Positions 2,816 to 38,769 of a stretch of 64,000 nt of DNA are shown here, in pieces. The position numbers and the translations under genes were made by a program. The notes under the pieces are model-generated. The model saw only the letters and a program-made list of their open reading frames with translations, searched no databases and was not told the DNA's origin. Position 1 is the first letter of the stretch, and each line of letters starts with the position of its first letter. Source of the stretch: an uncultured Candidatus Saccharibacteria bacterium (GTDB lineage: Bacteria; Patescibacteriota; Minisyncoccia; Phycocordibacterales; DATDWN01); contig CAYRYA010000004.1 of assembly GCA_964428435.1 (NCBI GenBank), positions 8,116 to 72,115 on the forward strand. Direction: 5' to 3'.

Positions 2816-3082
2816 ATGGCTTACACAATTTACATCTTATATAGTCAGAAAGATAAAGGACTCTATGTTGGATGCACTTCAAATATTTCTAGTCGTATGC
2901 AGCGACATTCAAGTGGTCAGGTACCTGCTACAAAGCACAGGAGACCAATCACTTTAATTCACACAGAAACATTTGAAGATAAAGCAGAAGCATTTAACAG
3001 AGAGAGATTTTTAAAAAGTCTCTGGGGTTCAAGAGAGAAGAAGAAAATTAAAGATATATATTTAAGATCATTAGATGTGTAA
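2816..3082 (+). CDS. GIY-YIG nuclease family protein (stand-alone ~88 aa)
   Basis: TIYILYS...KGLYVGCTSNISSRMQRH matches the GIY...YIG/R..H core. Confidence 0.7.
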   Translation: MAYTIYILYSQKDKGLYVGCTSNISSRMQRHSSGQVPATKHRRPITLIHTETFEDKAEAFNRERFLKSLWGSREKKKIKDIYLRSLDV

Positions 3083-3147: not shown

Positions 3148-3556
3148 GGGGGTGCCAGGTTTTGACATAGTCTGCATCCGTTCGCGCACTACAGAGTTCG
3201 AGTTACTCTTTAAACTGCTCGAAACCATACGTGTAAACAATACTGTTGCACGAGCAAAAGCTTCTGTTTCTCCATATTTTGGAGTTAACGACTTTGCTTT
3301 CTCTTACGCACGAGCTTAATCTAAGTTTCGTCCCTAAGAGGGGGTGACACATCTGATATCTCATACGATGTCTCATTCATATAACCTTGAGATCCGGTCT
3401 CTTCCCTGTTTCAAGAAGTGACTCAAACAATGAAACTCGCCTTTTTCTTGTTTTGTATATTTTTTAGAGAAAAAGTCTAAATGTTAAAATATTCTATGTA
3501 GTGTAGACCCGTTCGTATTCTCTCTATGCACGTGGTTTCAATACCACCATCTCCAC
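3148..3556 (+). ncRNA. ssrA: tmRNA (ssrA)
   Basis: Next to smpB. 5' GGGGGUG...CCAGGUUUUGAC resembles the tmRNA 5' end/D-analog. 3' end GUGG-UUUCAAUA-CCAC T-arm then CAUCUCC-A pairs with the 5' GGGGGUG including a G3.U70 wobble. Internal tag-like frame GGA GUU AAC GAC UUU GCU UUC UCU UAC GCA CGA GCU UAA (3281-3319) resembles E. coli GCAAACGACGAAAACUACGCUUUAGCAGCUUAA. Confidence 0.65.
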
Positions 3557-3608
3557 AAAATTGTACAGAGACCGCCTTAGGGCGGTTTTTCTGTACAATT
3601 TTGTGGAA
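3557..3608. terminator. long palindromic terminator after tmRNA
   Basis: AAAATTGTACAGAGACCGCC-TTAG-GGCGGTTTTTCTGTACAATTTT nested perfect hairpin with T-tract. Confidence 0.6.
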
Positions 3609-4020
3609 GTGAGCAAAGCAGAGCTTTGCGTGTGCATCGAAGCCACCGGAGCGAGGGTGAGAGGTAGTGTTATTACCTCGCAAGACCTTGAATATTTTGT
3701 AATCAAAATGTGAAAGGCGTACCGTTCCTGTAAGGAAACCGTCAGCAGACGGGACCGCGAGGTGGTGCTCGACTTATTTTACTTCATCGTACTCGATGTT
3801 AGTAAAATAGAAGTACCCTTGTGGTATAGACTTTTCCGAGCGACGGCGAGGAAAAAGTCGAAGGTTCAATGTCACCAATAAAACATGTTTTGCGAGTGGT
3901 ATTGAAACGGCGGAACGATTCCTGATTTAGCAAAATCAGGACGTGAGCCGGTGCCCAGACCATTCTGGCGCGACGGCGACAGAATGAGTCGCGGGGCGAT
4001 GTCACCTCCTCTACTTTTTT
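3609..4020 (+). ncRNA. ORF-free, GC-enriched, hairpin-dense region; candidate structured ncRNA of unknown identity
   Basis: ~410 nt with no credible ORF on either strand between two promoter/terminator-delimited units. Contains GGGUGAGAGG..CGCAAGACC, GAGGAAAAAGUC and GACAGAAUGAGUCGC motifs that are reminiscent of, but not sufficient for, RNase P RNA conserved regions. An 85-nt core (3658-3742) is duplicated at 31084-31172. Confidence 0.3.
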
Positions 4021-4028
4021 ACCAGCAC

Positions 4029-4057
4029 TTGACAAAGTATATAAATATATTTATTAT
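4029..4057 (+). promoter_or_regulatory. sigma70-like promoter
   Basis: TTGACA-17 bp-TATTAT, followed by AAGGAG RBS 7 nt before ATG 4077. Confidence 0.5.
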
Positions 4058-4076
4058 AATATAAGGAGAACACCTG

Positions 4077-4421
4077 ATGTTAACTATACTGTTCAGAGCC
4101 TTGTTTGTAGGCATCATTGCGATGATTGCTTGCGAATTAGGATACAGGGCAAATAAATGTGAGGAACCAACCAAAAAAGATGTCGAATTCCCCTCTAAAA
4201 TGTCGGGAGTCATCATCTCCGACCAAAAGGATCGGTCGGATGATGACATGCTTCCATCGGCAATAAGGGTAATGGTGTCGAGTGGACACGAGTTCGGCGC
4301 CCTCTACAACAATACTGGTTTCAAGAAAAAGTGCCCGTCCTTCAAGAAAGGATGGAAAGTGGACATCGTTAGATGGAATGGGAGGTACTATGTACCCTAT
4401 GACTGTCCGACAACACCATAA
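4077..4421 (+). CDS. small secreted protein or lipoprotein, hypothetical
   Basis: 114 aa; N-terminal hydrophobic signal with IAMIAC lipobox-like motif; own promoter, RBS and terminator. Confidence 0.5.
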   Translation: MLTILFRALFVGIIAMIACELGYRANKCEEPTKKDVEFPSKMSGVIISDQKDRSDDDMLPSAIRVMVSSGHEFGALYNNTGFKKKCPSFKKGWKVDIVRWNGRYYVPYDCPTTP

Positions 4422-4440
4422 GCACAACCGCACCCCGCCG

Positions 4441-4474
4441 AAAGCCGCCGCGCTTCCGGCGGCTTTCTTTTTTC
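4441..4474 (+). terminator. rho-independent terminator
   Basis: AAAGCCGCCG-CGCTT-CCGGCGGCTTTC followed by TTTTTT. Confidence 0.7.
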
Positions 4475-4537
4475 CCACACTTGACTCAGTTATTAATATA
4501 CTATAATATAGTACTATATCTTAGTAATACAAAAACC

Positions 4538-4756
4538 ATGACAACAATCACTGTCCCCCTCAGCACAGAACTTAATGAGTTTATCAACGAGCAAGTAAAA
4601 CTTGGGAAAATGCCAAACAAAGCCGAACTTGTTCGTGCTGCAATTATTAGATATAAGGAGGATGCACTCATTACTGAGCTTCTCAAGGCAAAACAAGAGG
4701 CAAAAGAAGGTAAGCTTTTTACCGGAGATTTAGATGCGCTTGCAAAGCGCTTTTAA
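4538..4756 (+). CDS. type II antitoxin, ribbon-helix-helix (ParD/CopG-like)
   Basis: 72 aa from ATG 4538 (MTTITVPLSTELNEFINEQVKLGKMPNKAELVRAAIIRYKED...); 10 bp upstream of a RelE/ParE-like gene; TTGACT/TATAAT-like promoter at 4481-4507. Confidence 0.65.
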   Translation: MTTITVPLSTELNEFINEQVKLGKMPNKAELVRAAIIRYKEDALITELLKAKQEAKEGKLFTGDLDALAKRF

Positions 4757-4765
4757 CAAACCTCC

Positions 4766-5032
4766 ATGCTTACTATTTTTTACACTCCTAATTTTATCCG
4801 CAGATACAGACATCTTGATCCTGTCTTACAGGGCGAGGTTAAAGATAAGATTGATTCATTTCGAACTATCAAGAATCATTTAAAACTCAAGGTACACAAG
4901 CTAAAAGGATCACTTGATAATACGTATGCTTTTTCCGTGAACTTTAAAGTGCGCATCATTTTTGAATACCAAAAAAATAAGAAAAACGTAAACTTATTGT
5001 ATGTCGGTAGTCATGATGAATTATATTCTTAA
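4766..5032 (+). CDS. type II toxin, RelE/ParE superfamily
   Basis: 88 aa; ...LKVHKLKGSLDNTYAFSVNFKVRIIFEYQKNKKNVNLLYVGSHDELY matches the RelE/ParE fold signature (HKLKG..Y..R....RIIF......I.LL.IG.H). Confidence 0.7.
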   Translation: MLTIFYTPNFIRRYRHLDPVLQGEVKDKIDSFRTIKNHLKLKVHKLKGSLDNTYAFSVNFKVRIIFEYQKNKKNVNLLYVGSHDELYS

Positions 5033-5050
5033 GAGCTGTATAATTATTGT

Positions 5051-6160
5051 ATGCTCAACACGATTTTAAACTACTTTTTACTCAGGAAAGCAACCCCTTC
5101 CCTCATCGAGAATATTTTAAAAAAAGAAAAGTTTACCTATACAAAAAACGACATCAACACTCTACTGAAAGGCAATCAAAAAGGTACTCGATACGGAAAC
5201 ATTATTCTTGAAAGAAACGAGAATGGTCAAACAGTTAAACGATTCTTAAAAGTCGTACTCGATGGCACATGGCGTACATTTACCCTTTTTGAAAGACAGG
5301 TGAAGATTTCAGAGATGCTCTATCGTGACCCTACCTACATAGCGCCTACATTAAACGTACTTCACTCTCACCTATCACACCCTGTTGCTTACGCTATTTT
5401 CGAAACACGAGAATCAGGAAATGATTTTGGTTTTATGGATGACAGAAAAGAGTCGTACGAACAATTCACAACTAAAGAAATAGAAAAACTTGTCGAAGCA
5501 TTGTTTTCATTTCACCAGATCGGCGACCATGTTGATCCGACAATTTGGAAATACACTCGAGCATTAGATTTTTCAAAAGAATACTACGTTAAAAAAATAC
5601 ACAACCTTTTTGCAATCCGTATTACTCACAAAAAAGAAAATGGAGATATAGTTTTTGATACCGTAGAGAACATCATTAAAACATACACAAACATCAAAGA
5701 CCCACTGAAGCAAACGCTTTCAGTATTTACAGAAAATTGGAAAGAGTCAGCTCGCAACAAAACCTATCTTGTCCACGGCGACATGTCACTCGACAACATC
5801 TACAAACATCCACATGGTGAAATTGAGCTTCTCGATTTCGAATGGGTAAGCCATACAAAAAATCCACTCATCGCACTTATGTACGACTATGGAAATGTGC
5901 GTGCACGAGCATGGTCTTCCCCGTCATTTCAAACCGCTCTTGATTCGCGCATGCTGTCTATTGGGAAAAAATACACAGATGAAGCGACGCTCCAGAGAGG
6001 CATGACCCTAGGGAAACTTTACTACTCGCTTACTATGTGCCGGTTCCATCTAGATTTCACCAATACCGTCAAAAAAGACAAACGGATGGAAGTGGAATAT
6101 TTTTTAATGTTCCCATCTTCGTTACACACACTTATAGATGTGATTATGCACGGCAAATAA
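5051..6160 (+). CDS. APH/choline-kinase-like phosphotransferase family protein
   Basis: 369 aa; catalytic-loop-like LVHGDMSLDNIY (HGDxxxxN) and ELLDFEW (D[FW]E metal-binding motif) in the expected order. Confidence 0.5.
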   Translation: MLNTILNYFLLRKATPSLIENILKKEKFTYTKNDINTLLKGNQKGTRYGNIILERNENGQTVKRFLKVVLDGTWRTFTLFERQVKISEMLYRDPTYIAPTLNVLHSHLSHPVAYAIFETRESGNDFGFMDDRKESYEQFTTKEIEKLVEALFSFHQIGDHVDPTIWKYTRALDFSKEYYVKKIHNLFAIRITHKKENGDIVFDTVENIIKTYTNIKDPLKQTLSVFTENWKESARNKTYLVHGDMSLDNIYKHPHGEIELLDFEWVSHTKNPLIALMYDYGNVRARAWSSPSFQTALDSRMLSIGKKYTDEATLQRGMTLGKLYYSLTMCRFHLDFTNTVKKDKRMEVEYFLMFPSSLHTLIDVIMHGK

Positions 6161-27573: not shown

Positions 27574-30500
27574 TTATTTTTTCAATTTAAAGAACATTTT
27601 GTTTTTTTCCACTGCTTTTCGAGCAAAATCAAATGCTTGTTCAAAATCACTCTTTACACCAAACATACCAGTACCAAGTGAACGGTCATACTGCAAACCG
27701 ACACCCTCATCAATGACACTACCTGTACCAATCTTCTGCCCATTGAGTAATATTGTAAGCTCTGAGCCTTTCTGAAACACATTGATTCGTCCTCCGTTAT
27801 ACTCGATTGGGTACCGTAAGTCAATCATATCTGCAGGTAAATCCATAAGTCTTTTTTCGAGTTCAATATTGTATGCAGTACGAATATTTTTGAATTTTGG
27901 ATCAAATTGATACTCAGGTTTAAGTGGTAATTTTCCTGAAATAATATCTGAAGGTCGTATTTGTTCAGTATTCACTGAGACAATATCTTTAAAATTAACA
28001 GAACGAGCTGGGATATTCTCTATCGATGAAGACGCTACGATAGTTGCTGCATCAGCAGCTATAGATTCTCCTGGTGTAGCTGATACTTTCAATTCTGGTG
28101 TACTTTCAAGAACTGAAGGGTGTGTAGCAGGTGCAACCTGAGGAGGTTGTGTTTTAACAACATGATCTTCGACAGGAGTCGGATCAGTTGAAGTTGACAG
28201 ACCGTCCGCGTCAAACATTTTTCCTGTATAAGGATGTATTGCGCCATCACTTTCCATAAGTATCTCCGTTGCACCACTTCCATCACGCACCAAGGAAAGA
28301 TTTCCTTCTGCATCGATAGCAAGTTTTTCTCCTTTGAACCCGAATGCACTTTCTGCAGCTTGTCCTGGTTTAAAGAGACCTAAATCGAGAGCAATCTTTT
28401 GTGGAGACTGAGCAAATAGTTTTTCAAATGCAGGTGTAAGCGACTGACCTTGAGTCGCTTTTTTAAGTTGATCTATTGTGTCAATAAAACCTTTACTTGA
28501 AAGCCCTACTTCAACTGGTTGCATTGTTACAGGAATACTCTGCTCCACAACAGAGGCGGTAGGTTTTTCAATAATGGCTGTCTTTTGTGTAGGAGCATCT
28601 TCCTTAATGAGTTTATTCCACCATGAAGATTTTGTTGGAGCAGGAACATCAACAACAGAATGTGCTGTTGTAAGTGCATCATGTGCAGCATTTATTCCTG
28701 CGCCAGTACCCACGGACGTAGCTCCTCCCACTGCCATCATAAGCGCAGCTTTTTTTATACGATCACGTTTTGCCTGAACTTCTGCTTCTGACTCATATGC
28801 CTCAAAATCTCCAATTTTTTCATCCTGTTGCCCACCGTCAATTGTCGCGAAATTTTTCAAAGCTTTTTCTTTTTCAGCGAGCATCTTTTCTTGTTGTTGT
28901 TTACCTACCACAGACCCAGCATACTTTGCTCCCATTGCACCAGCGAAACCTCGCGCTGCTCGCATTGATGCAGTTGCAGCAAAACCTCCTACACCACCCG
29001 AAACGAGAGAAAAGAATGCTGATGATAGTGCAACACGAGCAAGGACAGGTAACTGTGCCCATTTATCCATAGACCTTGCCATAATACCTCTTTCTTTTTC
29101 AGGAAGAGCTTCTGCAATAAGCGTATTGAGCGTGTCTCGCTCCTTCTTAAACTGTTCCATTACTCCAATATCAAGATGTTTCGTTGTTTTTTTCTCAATA
29201 ATAGAAAAATCATGCGGCCGAGAAATTGTTTCCTCTACCTCAACATGACGTCGTGCAATAAAATTTCTCAATGCACGACCAGCCTCCATGTATTCTTTTT
29301 TAGCATCGAGATAGGCCTGATCTATATCTCCTTCAGCATCAGGACGCTGTTTAGACGGAACACCAAGTTCAGTCATAATCTTCTCATACACTTTCTTGCT
29401 TGAACGAATCTTTTCTTTACGAAGCGCTTCTTGTGCTGCAAAATGCTTAAGTGACTCCTCCAATTTAGACGAGAGTTCTTTTTCTATTTTTTCTGATTGA
29501 TCTTGCGTCATTGGTCCTGCTGGCTCAGGATATGCTGCTCCAATGAACTGATGCACAGCATTTGGAGAAATCTCAATTCGCTGAGCCTTGAGTGCGGCGT
29601 CACTGACACGCTCATCAAGACTTCTTTCAGATAAAGGTTTTTCAGTATATACCGGCGGTGGAGGTGCTACACCTCGTTCAGCAACATCTTTTACTGTAAT
29701 CACAGGGTGAGATACCACCTGAGTAGGTCTTATGGTGGTGACAGGGGGTATGATTTTCTTTGGACTCTGCAGAGGGATACTTGATCCCACAACCGGTGGT
29801 GGCTCTGGCGTCAACCAATCAGGGTAAGTTGTTTCTGTATCTTTCCCTTGCGCAATCTGTACCAAACTTTCATATTCACTTGGTAATAGTACAGCTTTAA
29901 CATCAGCTAAATTTTTAATGATATCTTCAATTTTTTCACCATCTACTTTGAATCTAAAAAATGTTTTTAGTGCTGTTTTTATGTTCTTATTTTCAATATC
30001 ATATTTTTTTATCAATCCGTTGAACGTATCCACTATTTTCTTATACGTAGGATTTTGAGGTTTTTCAACCATATCAGGACGCATCATAAATGCATTATGT
30101 ACTTTTGCCTCAGTAGTGTTGTATCCAGACGCATCATCAGTCATACCAGGACGCATCATAAATGCGTTGCGTACCTTTGCTTCAGTATTATATCGCGAAG
30201 CATCATCAGCCATCTTTTCTGGTTGAGGTGTTGACGTATCGAAACCTGATTGACCCAAAAAACCTTCGCCTGAAGGATCTATCCCCTCAATATTTCCTTG
30301 GTTTAATATATCCTCAACCCACACCGCACCATCTACAAGAGTACTCTTTACTTTATCTACCTGTGAAAGTTCTTGTGAACGATCAGATCCCCCCGCAAAG
30401 CCAAAGGTTGGTCTAAATGTTCCATCAACACCACCCTTCAAAAGATTTCTATCTAAGAGACTCTCTAATGCCCTACTAATACGTAGACGAAGATTTGATC

Positions 30501-30909
30501 CTCTTCCAGATCGAGGATCACCTTCACCTTTGTTTCGTAGAATTGCGTTAACAATCTGATCCGGTGTGAGCGGAGTTTCTTTTGTAACACTTATAACATC
30601 TTTCTCTATATCAGAAATTGGAAATTGTCCTGCAGTAATTTCTACTGGCTTTAACTCATTTTTTTGTAGAGGTGGTATGGAAACACGTATTGGTACTATT
30701 TTTTTAGAAACAGTAGATATTCTGTTTTTCAAAATTTTTCCAGATTCTTTTGCCGCCTGCTGAATACCTTCTTCAATCTCTTGTTCTTCTAACACACCGA
30801 AAGGATTTTTAACCCCTGTGTCTTCAAGCATTTCTGCTAACTCCTTAAGATATTTTTCGCGGTCTGGATTAAGTGGTTCTTTTTCGTATATTTTCTGAGA
30901 ATCTTCCAT
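27574..30909 (-). CDS. large (~1112 aa) hypothetical protein with two Gly/Ala-rich hydrophobic segments, inserted between fusA and tuf
   Basis: Continuous ORF. Start set at MEDSQKIYEKE (TACAAT 6 nt upstream, leaderless-like). The annotated TTG start at 30978 lies inside the fusA terminator hairpin. Tandem 22-aa repeat, Pro-rich linker, GxxxG-rich hydrophobic segments; no catalytic motif recognised. Confidence 0.7.
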   Translation of the reverse strand: MEDSQKIYEKEPLNPDREKYLKELAEMLEDTGVKNPFGVLEEQEIEEGIQQAAKESGKILKNRISTVSKKIVPIRVSIPPLQKNELKPVEITAGQFPISDIEKDVISVTKETPLTPDQIVNAILRNKGEGDPRSGRGSNLRLRISRALESLLDRNLLKGGVDGTFRPTFGFAGGSDRSQELSQVDKVKSTLVDGAVWVEDILNQGNIEGIDPSGEGFLGQSGFDTSTPQPEKMADDASRYNTEAKVRNAFMMRPGMTDDASGYNTTEAKVHNAFMMRPDMVEKPQNPTYKKIVDTFNGLIKKYDIENKNIKTALKTFFRFKVDGEKIEDIIKNLADVKAVLLPSEYESLVQIAQGKDTETTYPDWLTPEPPPVVGSSIPLQSPKKIIPPVTTIRPTQVVSHPVITVKDVAERGVAPPPPVYTEKPLSERSLDERVSDAALKAQRIEISPNAVHQFIGAAYPEPAGPMTQDQSEKIEKELSSKLEESLKHFAAQEALRKEKIRSSKKVYEKIMTELGVPSKQRPDAEGDIDQAYLDAKKEYMEAGRALRNFIARRHVEVEETISRPHDFSIIEKKTTKHLDIGVMEQFKKERDTLNTLIAEALPEKERGIMARSMDKWAQLPVLARVALSSAFFSLVSGGVGGFAATASMRAARGFAGAMGAKYAGSVVGKQQQEKMLAEKEKALKNFATIDGGQQDEKIGDFEAYESEAEVQAKRDRIKKAALMMAVGGATSVGTGAGINAAHDALTTAHSVVDVPAPTKSSWWNKLIKEDAPTQKTAIIEKPTASVVEQSIPVTMQPVEVGLSSKGFIDTIDQLKKATQGQSLTPAFEKLFAQSPQKIALDLGLFKPGQAAESAFGFKGEKLAIDAEGNLSLVRDGSGATEILMESDGAIHPYTGKMFDADGLSTSTDPTPVEDHVVKTQPPQVAPATHPSVLESTPELKVSATPGESIAADAATIVASSSIENIPARSVNFKDIVSVNTEQIRPSDIISGKLPLKPEYQFDPKFKNIRTAYNIELEKRLMDLPADMIDLRYPIEYNGGRINVFQKGSELTILLNGQKIGTGSVIDEGVGLQYDRSLGTGMFGVKSDFEQAFDFARKAVEKNKMFFKLKK

Positions 30910-30969
30910 GTGTACATTGTATCTCGGTAGTGACCACAGACGCAATGAAAAAAAATTTCGTATGTGTAT

Positions 30970-31006
30970 AAAAAACAAAACTGGTATTTCACCAGTTTTG
31001 TTTTTT
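30970..31006. terminator. fusA terminator (perfect palindrome)
   Basis: AAAACAAAACTGGT-ATTTC-ACCAGTTTTGTTTT. Confidence 0.65.
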
Positions 31007-31083
31007 CATTTTTTATGAGTTACAACTTACCTTGAGGGTTTATGCTTGAGTTCGAGGCAAGAGTCTTGAGAGAATTTGTAGAC

Positions 31084-31172
31084 GTGAGAAGTGAGTGACC
31101 TCACTTCGCAAGACCTTGCCAGAGCTTTTGTAATCAAAAGATCGACAAGGTATACAGTTCCTGTAAGGAACA
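31084..31172. repeat. second copy of the 85-nt structured core found at 3658-3742
   Basis: GTGAGA-hairpin-CGCAAGACCTTG...TTTTGTAATCAAAAG...GTA.ACAGTTCCTGTAAGGAAC shared; the two hairpins differ in sequence but keep pairing. Confidence 0.5.
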
Positions 31173-31234
31173 GTTGTACGGCGGAAAATTCTATCAGACG
31201 AGTAACGAAGAAATCGAGCAAAAGGACCAAGGTG

Positions 31235-33376
31235 TTACTTCCGAGACTCCACAATAGTTTTCTCGACGTTAGGTGGAACCACTTCATAATGATCAAACTC
31301 CATTGTTACCGATCCACGACCCTGAGTCATAGAACGAATATCTGTGGTGTATCCAAACATTTCTGATAGAGGAACTTTTGCTTTGATAACTTTCAAACCA
31401 AATCGCTCTTCCATACCTTCGATCTGACCTCGTTTTGATGAGAGTGAACCAGTCACATCTCCCATGAACTGTTCTGGCATTACCGCCTCTACTTTCATAA
31501 TCGGCTCAAGAATAACAGATTTTGCTCTCTTTGCTGCTTCCTGGAATGCCTGTGATGCAGCAATTTTGTATGCAATTTCAGATGAGTCCACGTCGTGGTA
31601 AGAACCGAATGTAAGTTCACACGATACGTTTACCATCTTGTATCCTGCCACAATACCTCGATCCATCGCCTCTTTAACACCCTTCTCTACAGCAGGAATA
31701 AATTCTTGTGGGATCACACCTCCTTTAATAGAGTCAATGAATTCAAACTCATCATATCGCTTCACGTTTTTAGCAACTTTCTCACCTTCAGCAAGTGGCT
31801 CAAGCGGCTTGATAGAGATCTTCACGTGACCGTACTGACCTTTACCTCCCGTCTGTTTGATGTATTTGTGTTCAGCTTCAGCAGAACCAAGAATAGTTTC
31901 TCGATATGCCACCTGTGGTTTACCGATATTTACTTCCACACCAAACTCTCGTTTCATACGATCAACCATGATTTCAAGGTGAAGCTCACCCATACCTGAA
32001 ATAATAGTTTCTCCTGTTTCAGTGTTTGATGAAATTCTAAATGTTGGATCTTCATCTCCAAGTTTCTTCAATGCCATACCCATTTTCTCTTGGTCAGCTT
32101 TTGTTTTAGGTTCAATTCGGAGAGATACCACTGGTTCAGCAAACTTGATTGGGTCAAGAATAATTGGTTTGTTTTCATCACAGAATGTATGCGATGTTTT
32201 CGCATTCTTGAGACCTACCGCAGCCGCGATTTCTCCTGCGTATACTTTTTTCACTTCTTCTCGGTCATTTGCCTGAAGTCGCACGATACGTCCAAGACGC
32301 TCTTTTTCACCTGTAGTTGAGTTATAGATATATGAACCTGATTCTACTGTACCTGAGTACACACGGAAGAATGTAAGCTGTCCTACGAATGGGTCTGTCT
32401 GGAGTTTGAATGCAAGTGCTGCAAATGGTTCATCGTCAGATGCCTTTCGAGAAATCTCCTCACCAGTCACTGGATCTGTACCGTGTACTGGTGGAATATC
32501 AAGTGGACATGGGAGGTAGTCTACCACTGCGTCAAGTACAAGCTGTACTCCTTTGTTTTTGAGTGCTGAACCAGTAAACACTGGGAAGAGTTTATTTGCG
32601 ATTACTGCTTTTCGAATCACTGCTTTCAATTCATCAATTGAAAATTCTTTTCCTTCGAGATATCCAGACATCATCGCATCATCAAACTCAACAGCCTTCT
32701 CTACAAGCTCTGCTCGGTACTTCACTGCATCTGCCATGTATTCTGCTGGGATTTCTTCCTCTCTGATCTTAATACCCATTTCACCTTCGAAATAATATGC
32801 TTTCATTTTCAAAAGGTCGATTACTGCTTCGAAGTTAGATTCTTCACCAATTGGAAGCTGCATTCGAACTGCATTTTTGTTGAGCCGTTCTACGATTGAC
32901 TTGAATGATCGATCAAACGATCCTCCTGTTCGGTCGAGTTTATTGATGAAACAGATTCGAGGCACATGATATTTATCTGCCTGTCGCCATACAGTTTCTG
33001 ACTGTGGTTCTACACCCGCTACACCATCAAAAACTACCACTCCACCGTCGAGCACTTTCAAGGATCGCTCTACTTCTACGGTAAAGTCTACGTGACCTGG
33101 TGTGTCGATAATATTGAATCGCAATTTCTTTGAAATATCTGTTCCCATGTATGTTGGGTTCCAGAAACAGGTAATAGCCGCAGCGGTAATAGTGATACCA
33201 CGCTCTTTTTCTTGTTCCATCCAGTCAGTGGTTGCTGCACCATCGTGCACTTCACCGATCTTGTGAGACATACCTGTGTAATACAAAATACGCTCTGATG
33301 TTGTAGTTTTACCTGCGTCAATGTGAGCAATAATACCGAAGTTTCGTACTCTCTCGAGTGGATAATCGCGATTCAT
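31235..33376 (-). CDS. fusA: elongation factor G
   Basis: [23 protein letters not shown]-motifs and full domain II-V; start at [25 protein letters not shown]. Confidence 0.95.
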
Positions 33377-33425
33377 AAAATAATGATTAAAGATTAATGA
33401 TAAAAGATTAAAGAATAATACAGAA
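33377..33425. repeat. family 2 5'-UTR element, partial, upstream of fusA
   Basis: aatgattaaagattaatgataaaagattaaagaataat; on minus strand TCATTAATC..TTAATCATTATTTT-ATG. Confidence 0.5.
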
Positions 33426-33564
33426 ATGCATACACAAATCAATACAACTCAAAAAAGCTGAGGCGACTTGAATACCCAAAACTATATACTAAAAGCGCCC
33501 TGTGGGCAACTTGGTTGACATATATTTTGTACATGTTTAAATAGTCTTCATGTCTGTTCTTTCA

Positions 33565-37882: not shown

Positions 37883-38479
37883 ATGAAAACATTCGAGGAA
37901 ATGAAATTTAATATCGGCGAGCTTATTGGTATTTCTGCCGACTCAATCACCGAACACCTTAAACTGTATGCTGGGTATGTTAAACACGCCAACCTTATTA
38001 TTTCTAAAATTGAAGAAATGAGTAAAGATTCAGAAGCTCATGCGTATGCATTAGGTGAACTTCAACGACGTTTTGGGTTTGAATTCGATGGTATGAGAAA
38101 CCATGAATACTATTTCAAGTCGCTTGAAGGTGGTGCACACGCACCGTCACCAGAAAGTGCCCTTTATACTGCTATCACTGAAGAGTTTGGATCATTTGAT
38201 GCATGGCTTGCACGTTTCAAAGCAGTCGCACTCACTCGAGGTATTGGCTGGGCAATCCTCTACTATGATAAAACCACTGGACGCCTCTTGAACTCTTGGG
38301 TAGACGAACAACACTTGGGACACCTTACCGGACTTTCTCCTATTCTCACACTCGATGTATGGGAACATGCATTTGTACCAGACTACAAAGCATCTGGGAA
38401 GAAAACATACATCGAAGATTTCTTCAAAAACCTTAACTGGTCTGTAATCGAAGAAAACTTTTTACACGCAGTAAACTAG
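37883..38479 (+). CDS. Fe/Mn superoxide dismutase family protein
   Basis: 198 aa; C-terminal DVWEHAF(V) motif and WAILYYDK region characteristic of Fe/Mn-SOD. Confidence 0.75.
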   Translation: MKTFEEMKFNIGELIGISADSITEHLKLYAGYVKHANLIISKIEEMSKDSEAHAYALGELQRRFGFEFDGMRNHEYYFKSLEGGAHAPSPESALYTAITEEFGSFDAWLARFKAVALTRGIGWAILYYDKTTGRLLNSWVDEQHLGHLTGLSPILTLDVWEHAFVPDYKASGKKTYIEDFFKNLNWSVIEENFLHAVN

Positions 38480-38520
38480 TTGACTCATGGTGTATTTATA
38501 GATAGTCTGTATTACAGACT

Positions 38521-38769
38521 ATGCGAGACTTTCGTTTTTACCTCTCACCAGGTGAAATTATTGATCTTATACTTGGAGGATCTGTAAATGTTGCATCACC
38601 TGGTCCTGTAGTAGTTGACCCATATTCAACAATTCTCGATGATGCGGTTTCCGCAATGAAGAATATGTGTTGCATCAACGATACCCCTTCCCCAAAACCA
38701 AAACAGCGATATACATCCCGGCGACGAGCATTACGCGAAAGTCGCGGGAGGGTCTATCGAAAACTCTGA
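38521..38769 (+). CDS. hypothetical small protein
   Basis: 82 aa ORF, basic C-terminus; no motif recognised. Confidence 0.3.
   Translation: MRDFRFYLSPGEIIDLILGGSVNVASPGPVVVDPYSTILDDAVSAMKNMCCINDTPSPKPKQRYTSRRRALRESRGRVYRKL

Follow-up and report, generated by a model that had tools for sequence, protein, structure and literature searches.

What lies in the 410 nucleotides (nt) between a transfer-messenger RNA (tmRNA) gene and the next promoter, if not a gene for a protein? The question arose in a 64-kb stretch of DNA, hereafter the window, in which positions 3609-4020 (region A) hold no credible open reading frame (ORF). The original prediction, made by reading the sequence, noted an ~85-nt core in region A that recurs after fusA, and offered a degenerate housekeeping RNA or a novel structured RNA family as explanations. 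We find that this core, here called M, is a discrete unit that some close relatives carry at a given site and others lack. Region A is an accretion zone of small folded insertion modules 3' of tmRNA, not a single RNA gene. With moderate confidence, we read M as a mobile repeat that is non-autonomous, depends on its structure and is nested within other hairpin modules.

Two copies of M were identified in the window:

3653 to 3741, + strand: M copy A, a three-hairpin core (covariance model, 78.2 bits, E 2.7e-20).
31080 to 31174, + strand: M copy B (covariance model, 78.0 bits, E 3e-20).

Both scores were obtained with a model built from M family members, the two window copies among them. The best remaining match in the 64 kb has 12.7 bits (38454-38552, − strand). 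On inspection, this candidate third copy is not a member of M. Copy A comprises GUGAGA (3657-3662), P1 (3658-3682), P2 (3686-3717) and P3 (3725-3737), the last with loop CCUGUAAGG. Comparison of 3640-3770 with 31066-31200 gave 77% column identity with long identical blocks. The words CGCAAGACCTTG and GTTCCTGTAAGGAA, of 12-14 nt, each occur exactly twice in the window, at copies A and B. The recurrence first noticed is borne out by the model scores. It was also correct that the first hairpin changes sequence and keeps its pairing; this is true family-wide.

Copy B sits between fusA (31235-33442, − strand) and an ORF of 1134 amino acids (aa; 27574-30978, − strand), antisense to both. An orthologous copy occupies the equivalent place in UBA910 (L060; L-numbers designate loci) and carries a compensatory change in P2. 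Flanks of copy B, ~40 nt upstream and ~25 nt downstream of M, are conserved also in L103 and L091. The extra flanks of this subtype (window 31040-31200; L060, L103, L091) read GUUCGAGGCA...AGAC upstream and CAGUUGUACGGCGGAAAAUU downstream, and the downstream word CAACAACGAAAU recurs after several other M copies.

How far does M extend? One genome per GTDB species was scanned with the pattern GTGAGA-N10-24-CGCAAGACC-N28-56-CCTGTAAGG, which has 24 fixed bases. At least 117 loci matched, compared with about 2 expected by chance on our own estimate. Nearly all are in metagenome-assembled genomes (MAGs) of Patescibacteria/Paceibacteria, within the candidate phyla radiation (CPR). The matches listed include Zambryski-, Kaiser-, Nomura-, Taylor- and Vogelbacteria, among others, and several genomes contribute more than one contig. 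Family statistics given below rest on loci among these listed matches. We infer that a genome holds tens of copies. M is ~80-105 nt long, with the consensus GG-UGAGA-[P1 variable hairpin]-UCGCAAGA-CCUU[P2 variable, often long]AAGG-UGUACWG-[P3, NN-CCUGUAAGG-NN]. Two M-bearing contigs (L048 and L055) come from a MAG labelled Nitrospira sp. SF2_9, and L055 also has a tmRNA. The SmpB annotated to Nitrospira sp. SF2_9 (P0047) is 71% identical to that of the window. These are probably mis-binned Paceibacteria contigs.

M is new to Rfam and to the searchable literature. Using Rfam 15 (4227 models) at gathering score, tmRNA was the sole match in the window. A relaxed scan (E<=10) of region A, region B and the canonical unit L092, of the L-type described below, found chance-level hairpin matches only. 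Hence, no known family accounts for region A or B, and the idea of a novel structured RNA family holds for the core. No description of M was present in the full-text literature searched, conserved words included. These same scans were empty, beyond tmRNA, for signal recognition particle (SRP) RNA, 6S RNA, known ribozymes and large ornate RNAs. A group II intron was also rejected, with no Intron_gpII or group-II-D1D4 match at E<=10 and no domain-V-like hairpin on inspection. Phage origin was considered and dropped; the M pattern has 0 matches in IMG/VR viral contigs. No conserved sequence beyond M common to all copies was found by k-mer analysis and blastn, flanks being shared in the L-type and B-type subfamilies only. 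Similarly, tests for an enclosing stem, or for short direct repeats, at every copy gave only a slight excess of flank complementarity (-13.9 vs -12.5 kcal/mol in controls).

The fold of M is supported by covariation. The covariance model has 131 matches at E<1e-3 in the window and 99 loci. Among these, 98.4% of pair cells are standard, compared with 84.1% after shuffling and at most 57% with partners slid. Double-sided, compensatory changes occur in 16 of the 18 modelled pairs, a count that leans towards structure because the alignment of the 131 matches is model-fitted. However, RNAalifold run on an independent plain MAFFT alignment found that each variable pair of P1 and P3 has 13-29 double-sided changes. 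Divergent copies, such as those in L096, have compensatory swaps even at bases fixed by the collecting pattern: UGAG/CGCA is replaced by UUGAAC/GUUCAA, and CCUU/AAGG by GGUUGU/ACAACC. The same copies keep the unpaired AAGA, UGWACAG and CCUGUAAG loop. Thus, the covariation-like pattern that had been taken to indicate a structured element does so. In 102 of 118 copies, the forward strand folds into a more stable structure than the reverse complement does, and 113 G-U pairs are predicted. For both window copies the predicted folded strand is the + strand. In the short-P2 form, UGUA occurs three times, once each in J2/3 and the loops of P2 and P3. A pseudoknot that would pair UACA of J2/3 with UGUA of the P3 loop was considered by inspection and dropped; it is not claimed because the divergent UGAACAG variant does not covary.

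Is M a fixed part of its locus? We compared the smpB-tmRNA locus of the window with those of seven relatives, collected through SmpB homologues. Their state, with SmpB identity to the window, is as follows:

L122 (99%): pieces of region A reordered and lacking M, which occurs at another place (474-580).
L118 (95%): lacks M at the site it occupies in the window, where the flanks are ~90% identical; P4 differs; another M after GAGCCG (equivalent to window ~3950).
L119 (93%): tmRNA only, without region A.
L120 (92%): backbone pieces, without M.
L123 (92%): backbone pieces, without M; region A rearranged.
L124 (90%): ~203-nt unit with M on the opposite strand, between smpB and tmRNA.
L121 (81%): tmRNA only, without region A.

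The stretch 3653-3741 is precisely absent in L118, and is absent also in L120, L122 and L123. Conversely, the ~203-nt hairpin unit of L124 is inserted where L120 and L123 read GATAGGTA|GCACATTG uninterrupted. The closing stem of that unit is made by long terminal inverted repeats (AAATTCT...AGAATTT), and TA lies on either side of the unit. For M alone, terminal inverted repeats were not seen. A further empty/filled comparison, at the 3' end of ftsH, was uninformative; L122 has M there and its flanks are not alignable with the window. In L124, a 62-nt two-hairpin insertion was also found at 3459-3520 (equivalent to window ~3402), within the tmRNA gene, where the window and L118 have none. Folded insertions enter essential RNA genes too in this lineage.

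Region A is therefore best described module by module, since its core is gained and lost among relatives with 81-99% SmpB identity, with several copies per genome where checked. The features of region A and its immediate upstream context are:

3148 to 3558, + strand: tmRNA gene (Rfam RF00023, 64.7 bits, full-length model match); context, outside the element.
3552 to 3607, + strand: tmRNA terminator inverted repeat; 18-nt arms 100% complementary, inner CCGCC..GGCGG stem, then a T-run.
3603 to 4017, + strand: region A as a whole, a multi-domain folded backbone (minimum free energy (MFE) folding, RNAalifold).
3642 to 3768, + strand: Unit 1, an L-type hairpin scaffold carrying M (P0 covariation, recurrence at other loci).
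3739 to 3752, + strand: P4 hairpin CCGUC-AGCA-GACGG (loop conserved, stem covaries).
3769 to 3826, + strand: Module 2, a long hairpin with arms 3775-3783/3801-3809 and an inner CAUCG/CGAUG stem (gap in the alignment with L118 and L120).
3829 to 3859, + strand: Y1 hairpin GACUUUUCC-GAGCGACGGCGA-GGAAAAAGUC, a GACG-loop module (repeat, covariation).
3865 to 3953, + strand: conserved middle block, formed by a hairpin (3865-3906) and, 3' of it, a CGGC...GCCG domain (3908-3950) enclosing an AGCA-loop hairpin (3920-3941) (inverted repeats).
3958 to 3991, + strand: Y2 hairpin GACCAUUCUG-GCGCGACGGCGA-CAGAAUGAGUC, a second GACG-loop module (inverted repeat).

As had been noted, region A is rich in hairpins and its GC content is raised, the rise being modest (0.46 vs 0.37-0.43 nearby). 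The + strand of 3609-4022 has an MFE of -161.9 kcal/mol, compared with -121.4 +/- 6.6 for shuffled sequences (z -6.1; 0 of 100 as good). The − strand reaches just -134.9 kcal/mol. Closing helices are formed by 3603-3610/~4010-4017 and 3634-3639/3997-4002, with a 5' hairpin at 3613-3629. The 3' arm of the terminator repeat continues into the 5' closing helix. RNAalifold applied to the backbone of the window, L118 and L120 predicted 96 pairs, 19 of them with compensatory changes among the three sequences. Hence, in the comparison of homologous regions, covariation of the backbone stood; conservation of the whole region across the seven relatives did not. By comparison, tmRNA is 84-97% identical in 7 of 7 relatives. 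The gap between tmRNA and the promoter-like site that precedes a 114-aa ORF (4029-4057, + strand, TTGACA-17-TATTAT, 11/12) contains only short ORFs of 50-78 aa, mostly with TTG starts. These are disrupted in close relatives by indels and by module gain and loss, in agreement with the claim that nothing credible is encoded. A leftward promoter-like site (4083-4056, − strand, TTAACA-16-TATTAT, 10/12) is aimed into region A, so that antisense transcription of the region is conceivable.

M is nested within Unit 1. In order, this unit consists of the P0 5' strand GCCACC (3642-3647), GGAGCGAGG (3648-3656), M, P4, GACCGCGAG and the P0 3' strand GGUGGUGC (3761-3768). P0 covaries, reading CCACC/GGUGG in the window, CCAAC/GUUGG in L118 and CCGAC/GUCGG in L120. 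The general L-type layout is closing helix P0, (C)CGGA, a 4-bp GACG-loop hairpin, GAG, optional M, an AGCA/AGUA-loop hairpin, a AUGCGUGC-like sequence and P0'. Such scaffolds occur with M (L001, L022, L024, L092, L095, L113 and others) and without it (L043, L087, L118), and their closing helices vary from locus to locus. The P4 position is UCCCAUC-ACCA-GAUGGGA in L118 and AGCCC-AGCA-GGGCU in L120; several other loci have an AGCA/AGUA-loop hairpin 3' of M. Likewise, a GACG-loop hairpin lies directly 5' of M in L006, L022, L024, L095, L109 and L113.

The remaining modules also come and go. Module 2 is an additional insertion relative to the relatives. L068 and L069 have similar sequence starting from M at a downstream distance of 120-140 nt, and L093 has it ~3 kb away from M. 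Hairpins Y1 and Y2 look like minimal L-type scaffold modules. They contain the only two exact occurrences of GCGACGGCGA in the window. The Y1 stem covaries with L120 (CAAGUGU/CACUUGA), as does the Y2 stem (AAAUUUUUU/AAAAAAUUU); L118 lacks the Y2 hairpin and has only ACUC in its place. The middle block is 98% identical to L118 and ~87% identical to L120. We considered whether the tails of the Y modules are att-site footprints, copied from the 3' end of tmRNA and displaced. Aligned locally to that end, they did no better than shuffled sequences (p ~0.16 or worse), and this idea was rejected.

Copies of M within a genome resemble each other. Same-genome pairs have a mean identity of 0.81, with 5 of 19 at or above 0.90. 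Between genomes the mean is 0.72 and 0.4% of pairs exceed 0.90. In 6 of the 7 most alike same-genome pairs, similarity ceases 1-12 nt from the ends of M. The exception is L007/L020, where it continues ~44 nt beyond the 3' end. The sharp edges hold even for pairs in which both copies sit in L-type scaffolds with differing stems. Head-to-tail copies that overlap by GG are found in L026 and L063. Arrays and clusters of two to five copies were observed in L096 (4013-4326 and 6095-6290), L101 (6399-7199) and L061 (64-2095). These include divergent variants and both orientations, and are further "nests" like region A.

Eight copies (~7%) are associated with a direct repeat of 28-66 nt. The upstream repeat ends exactly at GTGAGA, and the downstream repeat begins 2-106 nt after M, leaving a variable 3' tail. 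Smith-Waterman scores for these repeats reach 103, compared with a maximum of 34 for mismatched flank pairs. The duplication junction shares 1-5 nt with the target (..G|GT..). For the most part, the downstream repeat is the start of a gene, namely msrA or tRNA-Asn (two genomes each), tRNA-Ser, a P-loop gene or one further gene. The downstream repeat of L074 comprises 66 nt from the interior of the 5S rRNA gene. At this locus (870-1170), 5S lies downstream of 23S, and the interruption within it comprises M in antisense orientation, a tail of 42 nt and a diverged copy, 66 nt long, of the middle part of 5S. Hence, the 5S gene is split, and Rfam gives two partial 5S matches (872-980 and 1064-1169). 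Insertions that survive are presumably those whose duplication restores an intact gene.

Taken across loci, M lies in intergenic DNA in any orientation. It is also found within the L scaffold, within or beside tRNA and 5S genes, and adjoining the 5' ends of coding sequences. The base at position -1 is G in 73% of copies and that at -2 is a purine in 93%. The fold of M, and its gain and loss, are observations; how M moves, we wholly infer. M, and the larger hairpin unit able to carry it, would be non-autonomous mobile elements. The substrate may be the folded single strand of M, either an RNA transcript or a single-stranded DNA (ssDNA) intermediate, recognised in trans by copying or insertion machinery. 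Insertion would prefer the 3' side of ...RG, which would explain both the GG-UGAGA consensus and head-to-tail arrays. At times, insertion might be accompanied by a 28-66-nt duplication of adjacent sequence, leaving an intact gene copy downstream.

Several points weigh against mobility. No transposase, reverse transcriptase or other partner gene adjoins any copy among the 213 flanking proteins. A tblastn search with approximate IS200 and IS608 TnpA query sequences found none in 0.92 Mb, a small part of each genome. No clear short target-site duplication marks the sites where M alone was gained or lost. The 28-66-nt duplications could stem from template switching at a stalled fork beside a pre-existing M, and gene conversion among paralogues could yield high identity within genomes with sharp edges. 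In addition, invariant junctions, the orthologous compensatory change between copy B and UBA910, and class-wide conservation look like purifying selection on each copy. If so, a host function fits better than decaying selfish DNA. Finally, apparent invariance at the 24 fixed bases is partly ascertainment because the collecting pattern fixes those bases.

Consequently, a host function has to be weighed. M could be a functional multi-copy non-coding RNA or RNA domain, such as a conserved Paceibacteria protein platform or a small RNA, under selection at each locus. Similarity would then arise by gene conversion, and presence or absence by recombination or deletion. We treat this as a tentative alternative of appreciable, if lesser, probability. 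The unpaired junctions (AAGA, UGWACAG, CCUGUAAG loop) are invariant while stems covary, L096 variants included, and the structure is specific to one strand. The retention of copy B in UBA910 with its altered P2, persistence in very compact genomes, and the threefold UGUA of the short-P2 form would also fit such a domain. So would the position of L-type units, which are often on the same strand as, and just downstream of, tRNA or tmRNA genes. However, a -10 promoter signal at a fixed distance from M was not found, CPR promoter rules being uncertain and the 5' extension of the unit variable. Nor are terminator-like sites enriched downstream of M (16% on the same strand vs 15% on the opposite), with CPR terminator rules similarly uncertain. 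Furthermore, relatives whose SmpB proteins are 90-99% identical differ in the sites at which M was gained or lost, some copies split a 5S gene or lie in tRNA or coding 5' ends with duplications, and others form head-to-tail arrays or clusters (L096, L101, L026).

If M is a mobile repeat, as we favour, what kind would it be? Its nearest known counterparts are structured interspersed repeats, among them Rickettsia palindromic elements (RPEs), repetitive extragenic palindromic (REP) sequences and miniature inverted-repeat transposable elements (MITEs). RPEs occur inside RNA genes and coding regions as well as in intergenic DNA. RPE, REP and its mosaic form (BIME), BOX, enterobacterial repetitive intergenic consensus (ERIC) and Correia/MITE repeats are typically confined to a species or genus and defined by inverted repeats. 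Like RPEs and other bacterial interspersed repeats, M is short, ORF-less, hairpin-forming and scattered in a reduced genome. As with RPE-type repeats, it is homogeneous within a genome and present or absent between relatives. In contrast to RPE/REP-type repeats, M is conserved across many candidate Paceibacteria orders, and is non-palindromic, with three hairpins, invariant unpaired junctions and abundant covariation. It also differs from RPEs, REPs and MITEs in being nested in other folded modules, in its long gene-rescuing duplications and in having no cognate transposase that we could see. M is multi-copy, ORF-less and shorter than 600 bp, as MITEs are. The L124 unit resembles Tc1/IS630-type MITEs in its terminal inverted repeats with TA on both sides; for M alone, neither such repeats nor an evident short target duplication was seen.

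IS200/IS605 palindrome-associated transposable elements (PATEs), which are mobilised as folded ssDNA by Y1 HUH enzymes, offer a second comparison. Shared properties are strand-specific folding, the lack of a target-site duplication (at M-only sites), small size, non-autonomy and sharp edges. Insertion 3' of a short sequence resembling the element's own 3' end is also alike (...RGG| vs ...UAAGG|). However, the target of M is only ~2 nt (G at -1, purine at -2), and PATEs recognise a specific 4-5-nt sequence. In addition, the orientation of M is unbiased, duplications of 28-66 nt are foreign to the PATE mechanism, and no TnpA match was obtained (0.92 Mb, a weak test). Short interspersed nuclear element (SINE)-like or ribozyme-headed elements without long terminal repeats, known from eukaryotes, are likewise small structured units near or in tRNA and rRNA genes. 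Long variable duplications, microhomology at the 5' junction and a variable 3' extension recall SINE-type, target-primed retroposition. Unlike these elements, M has no reverse transcriptase partner, A-rich tail or 5' truncation series, and most copies have no detectable duplication. We know of nothing like SINE-like retroposons in bacteria.

There is a bolder version of mobility, which we regard as rather unlikely. M might be a new bacterial mobile element, defined by its folded single strand and not by terminal repeats or an encoded enzyme. It could be SINE-like and RNA-mediated, perhaps with a ribozyme-like 5' domain, or be structure-recognised ssDNA. Such an element would home into loops of structured RNAs, tRNA, 5S and 5' coding regions, and the 28-66-nt duplications would rescue the target gene.

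A small self-cleaving or processing ribozyme, or an RNase substrate, would define its own 5' end, and the discrete 5' boundary of M would then be an RNA end. Some retroelements carry HDV-like ribozymes (named for hepatitis delta virus) at their 5' ends, which such an M would resemble. In 8 of 8 duplication cases, M has an exact 5' boundary and a 3' tail of 2-106 nt, the three-hairpin fold is compact with highly conserved junction nucleotides, and the copies are dispersed and orientation-free, as in several ribozyme classes. Nevertheless, the only Rfam 15 ribozyme match at E<=10 was to RAGATH-1 hammerhead, on the opposite strand of L092 (E=1.5). The core topology is unlike hammerhead or HDV-like ribozymes on inspection, and near-identical copy pairs share a sharp 3' boundary as well. 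We consider this explanation improbable.

Regulation of flanking genes in cis, by a riboswitch, leader, attenuator or terminator, fares worse still. In its favour, a start codon on the same strand follows about 15 of the copies at a distance of 13-60 nt, and M tends to be nearer to the 3' ends of genes than to their starts. Relative to the flanking genes, however, orientation classes number 36 (+,+), 32 (-,-), 13 (-,+) and 12 (+,-). Hence, copies flanked by co-directional genes are antisense in half of the cases, and another 13 copies are flanked by divergent genes. Covariance-model scores are alike across the classes. The 213 flanking proteins fall into 188 clusters, all housekeeping, with no linked protein family or common function. 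Random orientation, unrelated neighbours, the lack of a fixed promoter or terminator, and a copy B that is antisense to both of its neighbours together make such a role very unlikely; the orientation statistics largely refute it.

A degenerate housekeeping RNA, whether RNase P RNA or another essential RNA, is refuted for region A, and we give it practically no credence, because L119 and L121 lack the region (which is rearranged in L123 and in L122, the latter at 99% SmpB identity), the core occurs more than once in the genomes checked, and no RNase P, SRP or 6S model matches at E<=10, despite a closed multi-domain fold of ~400 nt with short words like conserved regions CR-I, CR-II and CR-IV. 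The presence of such words had been pointed out, with the caution that RNase P identity was not supported. That caution was justified, since the identity fails on the model test (no RF00010 or RF00011 match in 3540-4080 at E<=10, nor in L092), on the order of the words and on copy number. Region A does share with ROOL, GOLLD, OLE, HEARO and raiA RNAs a ~400-nt closed multi-domain fold beside a tRNA-like gene, a variable island and covarying stems. Unlike those ornate RNAs, it has no Rfam match, its modules come and go independently, it is not conserved as a unit in near-identical relatives, and viral contigs in IMG/VR hold no match to the M pattern.

Some neighbouring features of the window were recorded in passing. 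ARAGORN reports no tmRNA or tRNA in the 64 kb, yet Rfam finds a full-length tmRNA there; ARAGORN does detect the tmRNA of L055. A stand-alone GIY-YIG ORF of 88 aa lies between smpB and tmRNA (2816-3082, + strand). In L119 it is downstream of tmRNA (4067-4306), and L118 and L120 have none. This small ORF seems to be a mobile gene in its own right. Compared with L118-L123, window positions 4077-6160 are a variable island between tmRNA and a conserved block of 220-aa, 137-140-aa and infC genes. In the window, the island holds the 114-aa ORF, an ORF of 369 aa that matches nothing in Pfam, and a toxin-antitoxin-like pair (4481-5032); relatives hold other cargo. The 1134-aa ORF beside copy B is also without a Pfam match and lies between fusA and tuf, in the str operon region. 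A terminator-like + strand hairpin (30970-31006) overlaps the start of its longest reading. Hence, the true start is probably further downstream.

The genomes of CPR bacteria, or Patescibacteria, are among the most streamlined, and their non-coding content is nearly unannotated. In this setting, a strongly covarying and widespread element has been missing from RNA libraries. The insertion-element behaviour of the core, its nesting in a second family of hairpin modules and its spread across Paceibacteria were unforeseen by the original prediction. Folded modules of 80-200 nt come and go beside essential RNA genes (tmRNA, tRNA) and, at one locus, within the gene for 5S rRNA, between relatives with 81-99% SmpB identity. 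The covariance model lets annotators mask or label repeats otherwise taken for orphan "structured RNAs" or spurious ORFs. If M is a host RNA domain, it marks an abundant, Paceibacteria-specific RNA-protein system. If M is mobile, it would make structure-dependent mobility tractable in a lineage where few transposons are known, and would be a source of rapid variation and of duplications at gene 5' ends.

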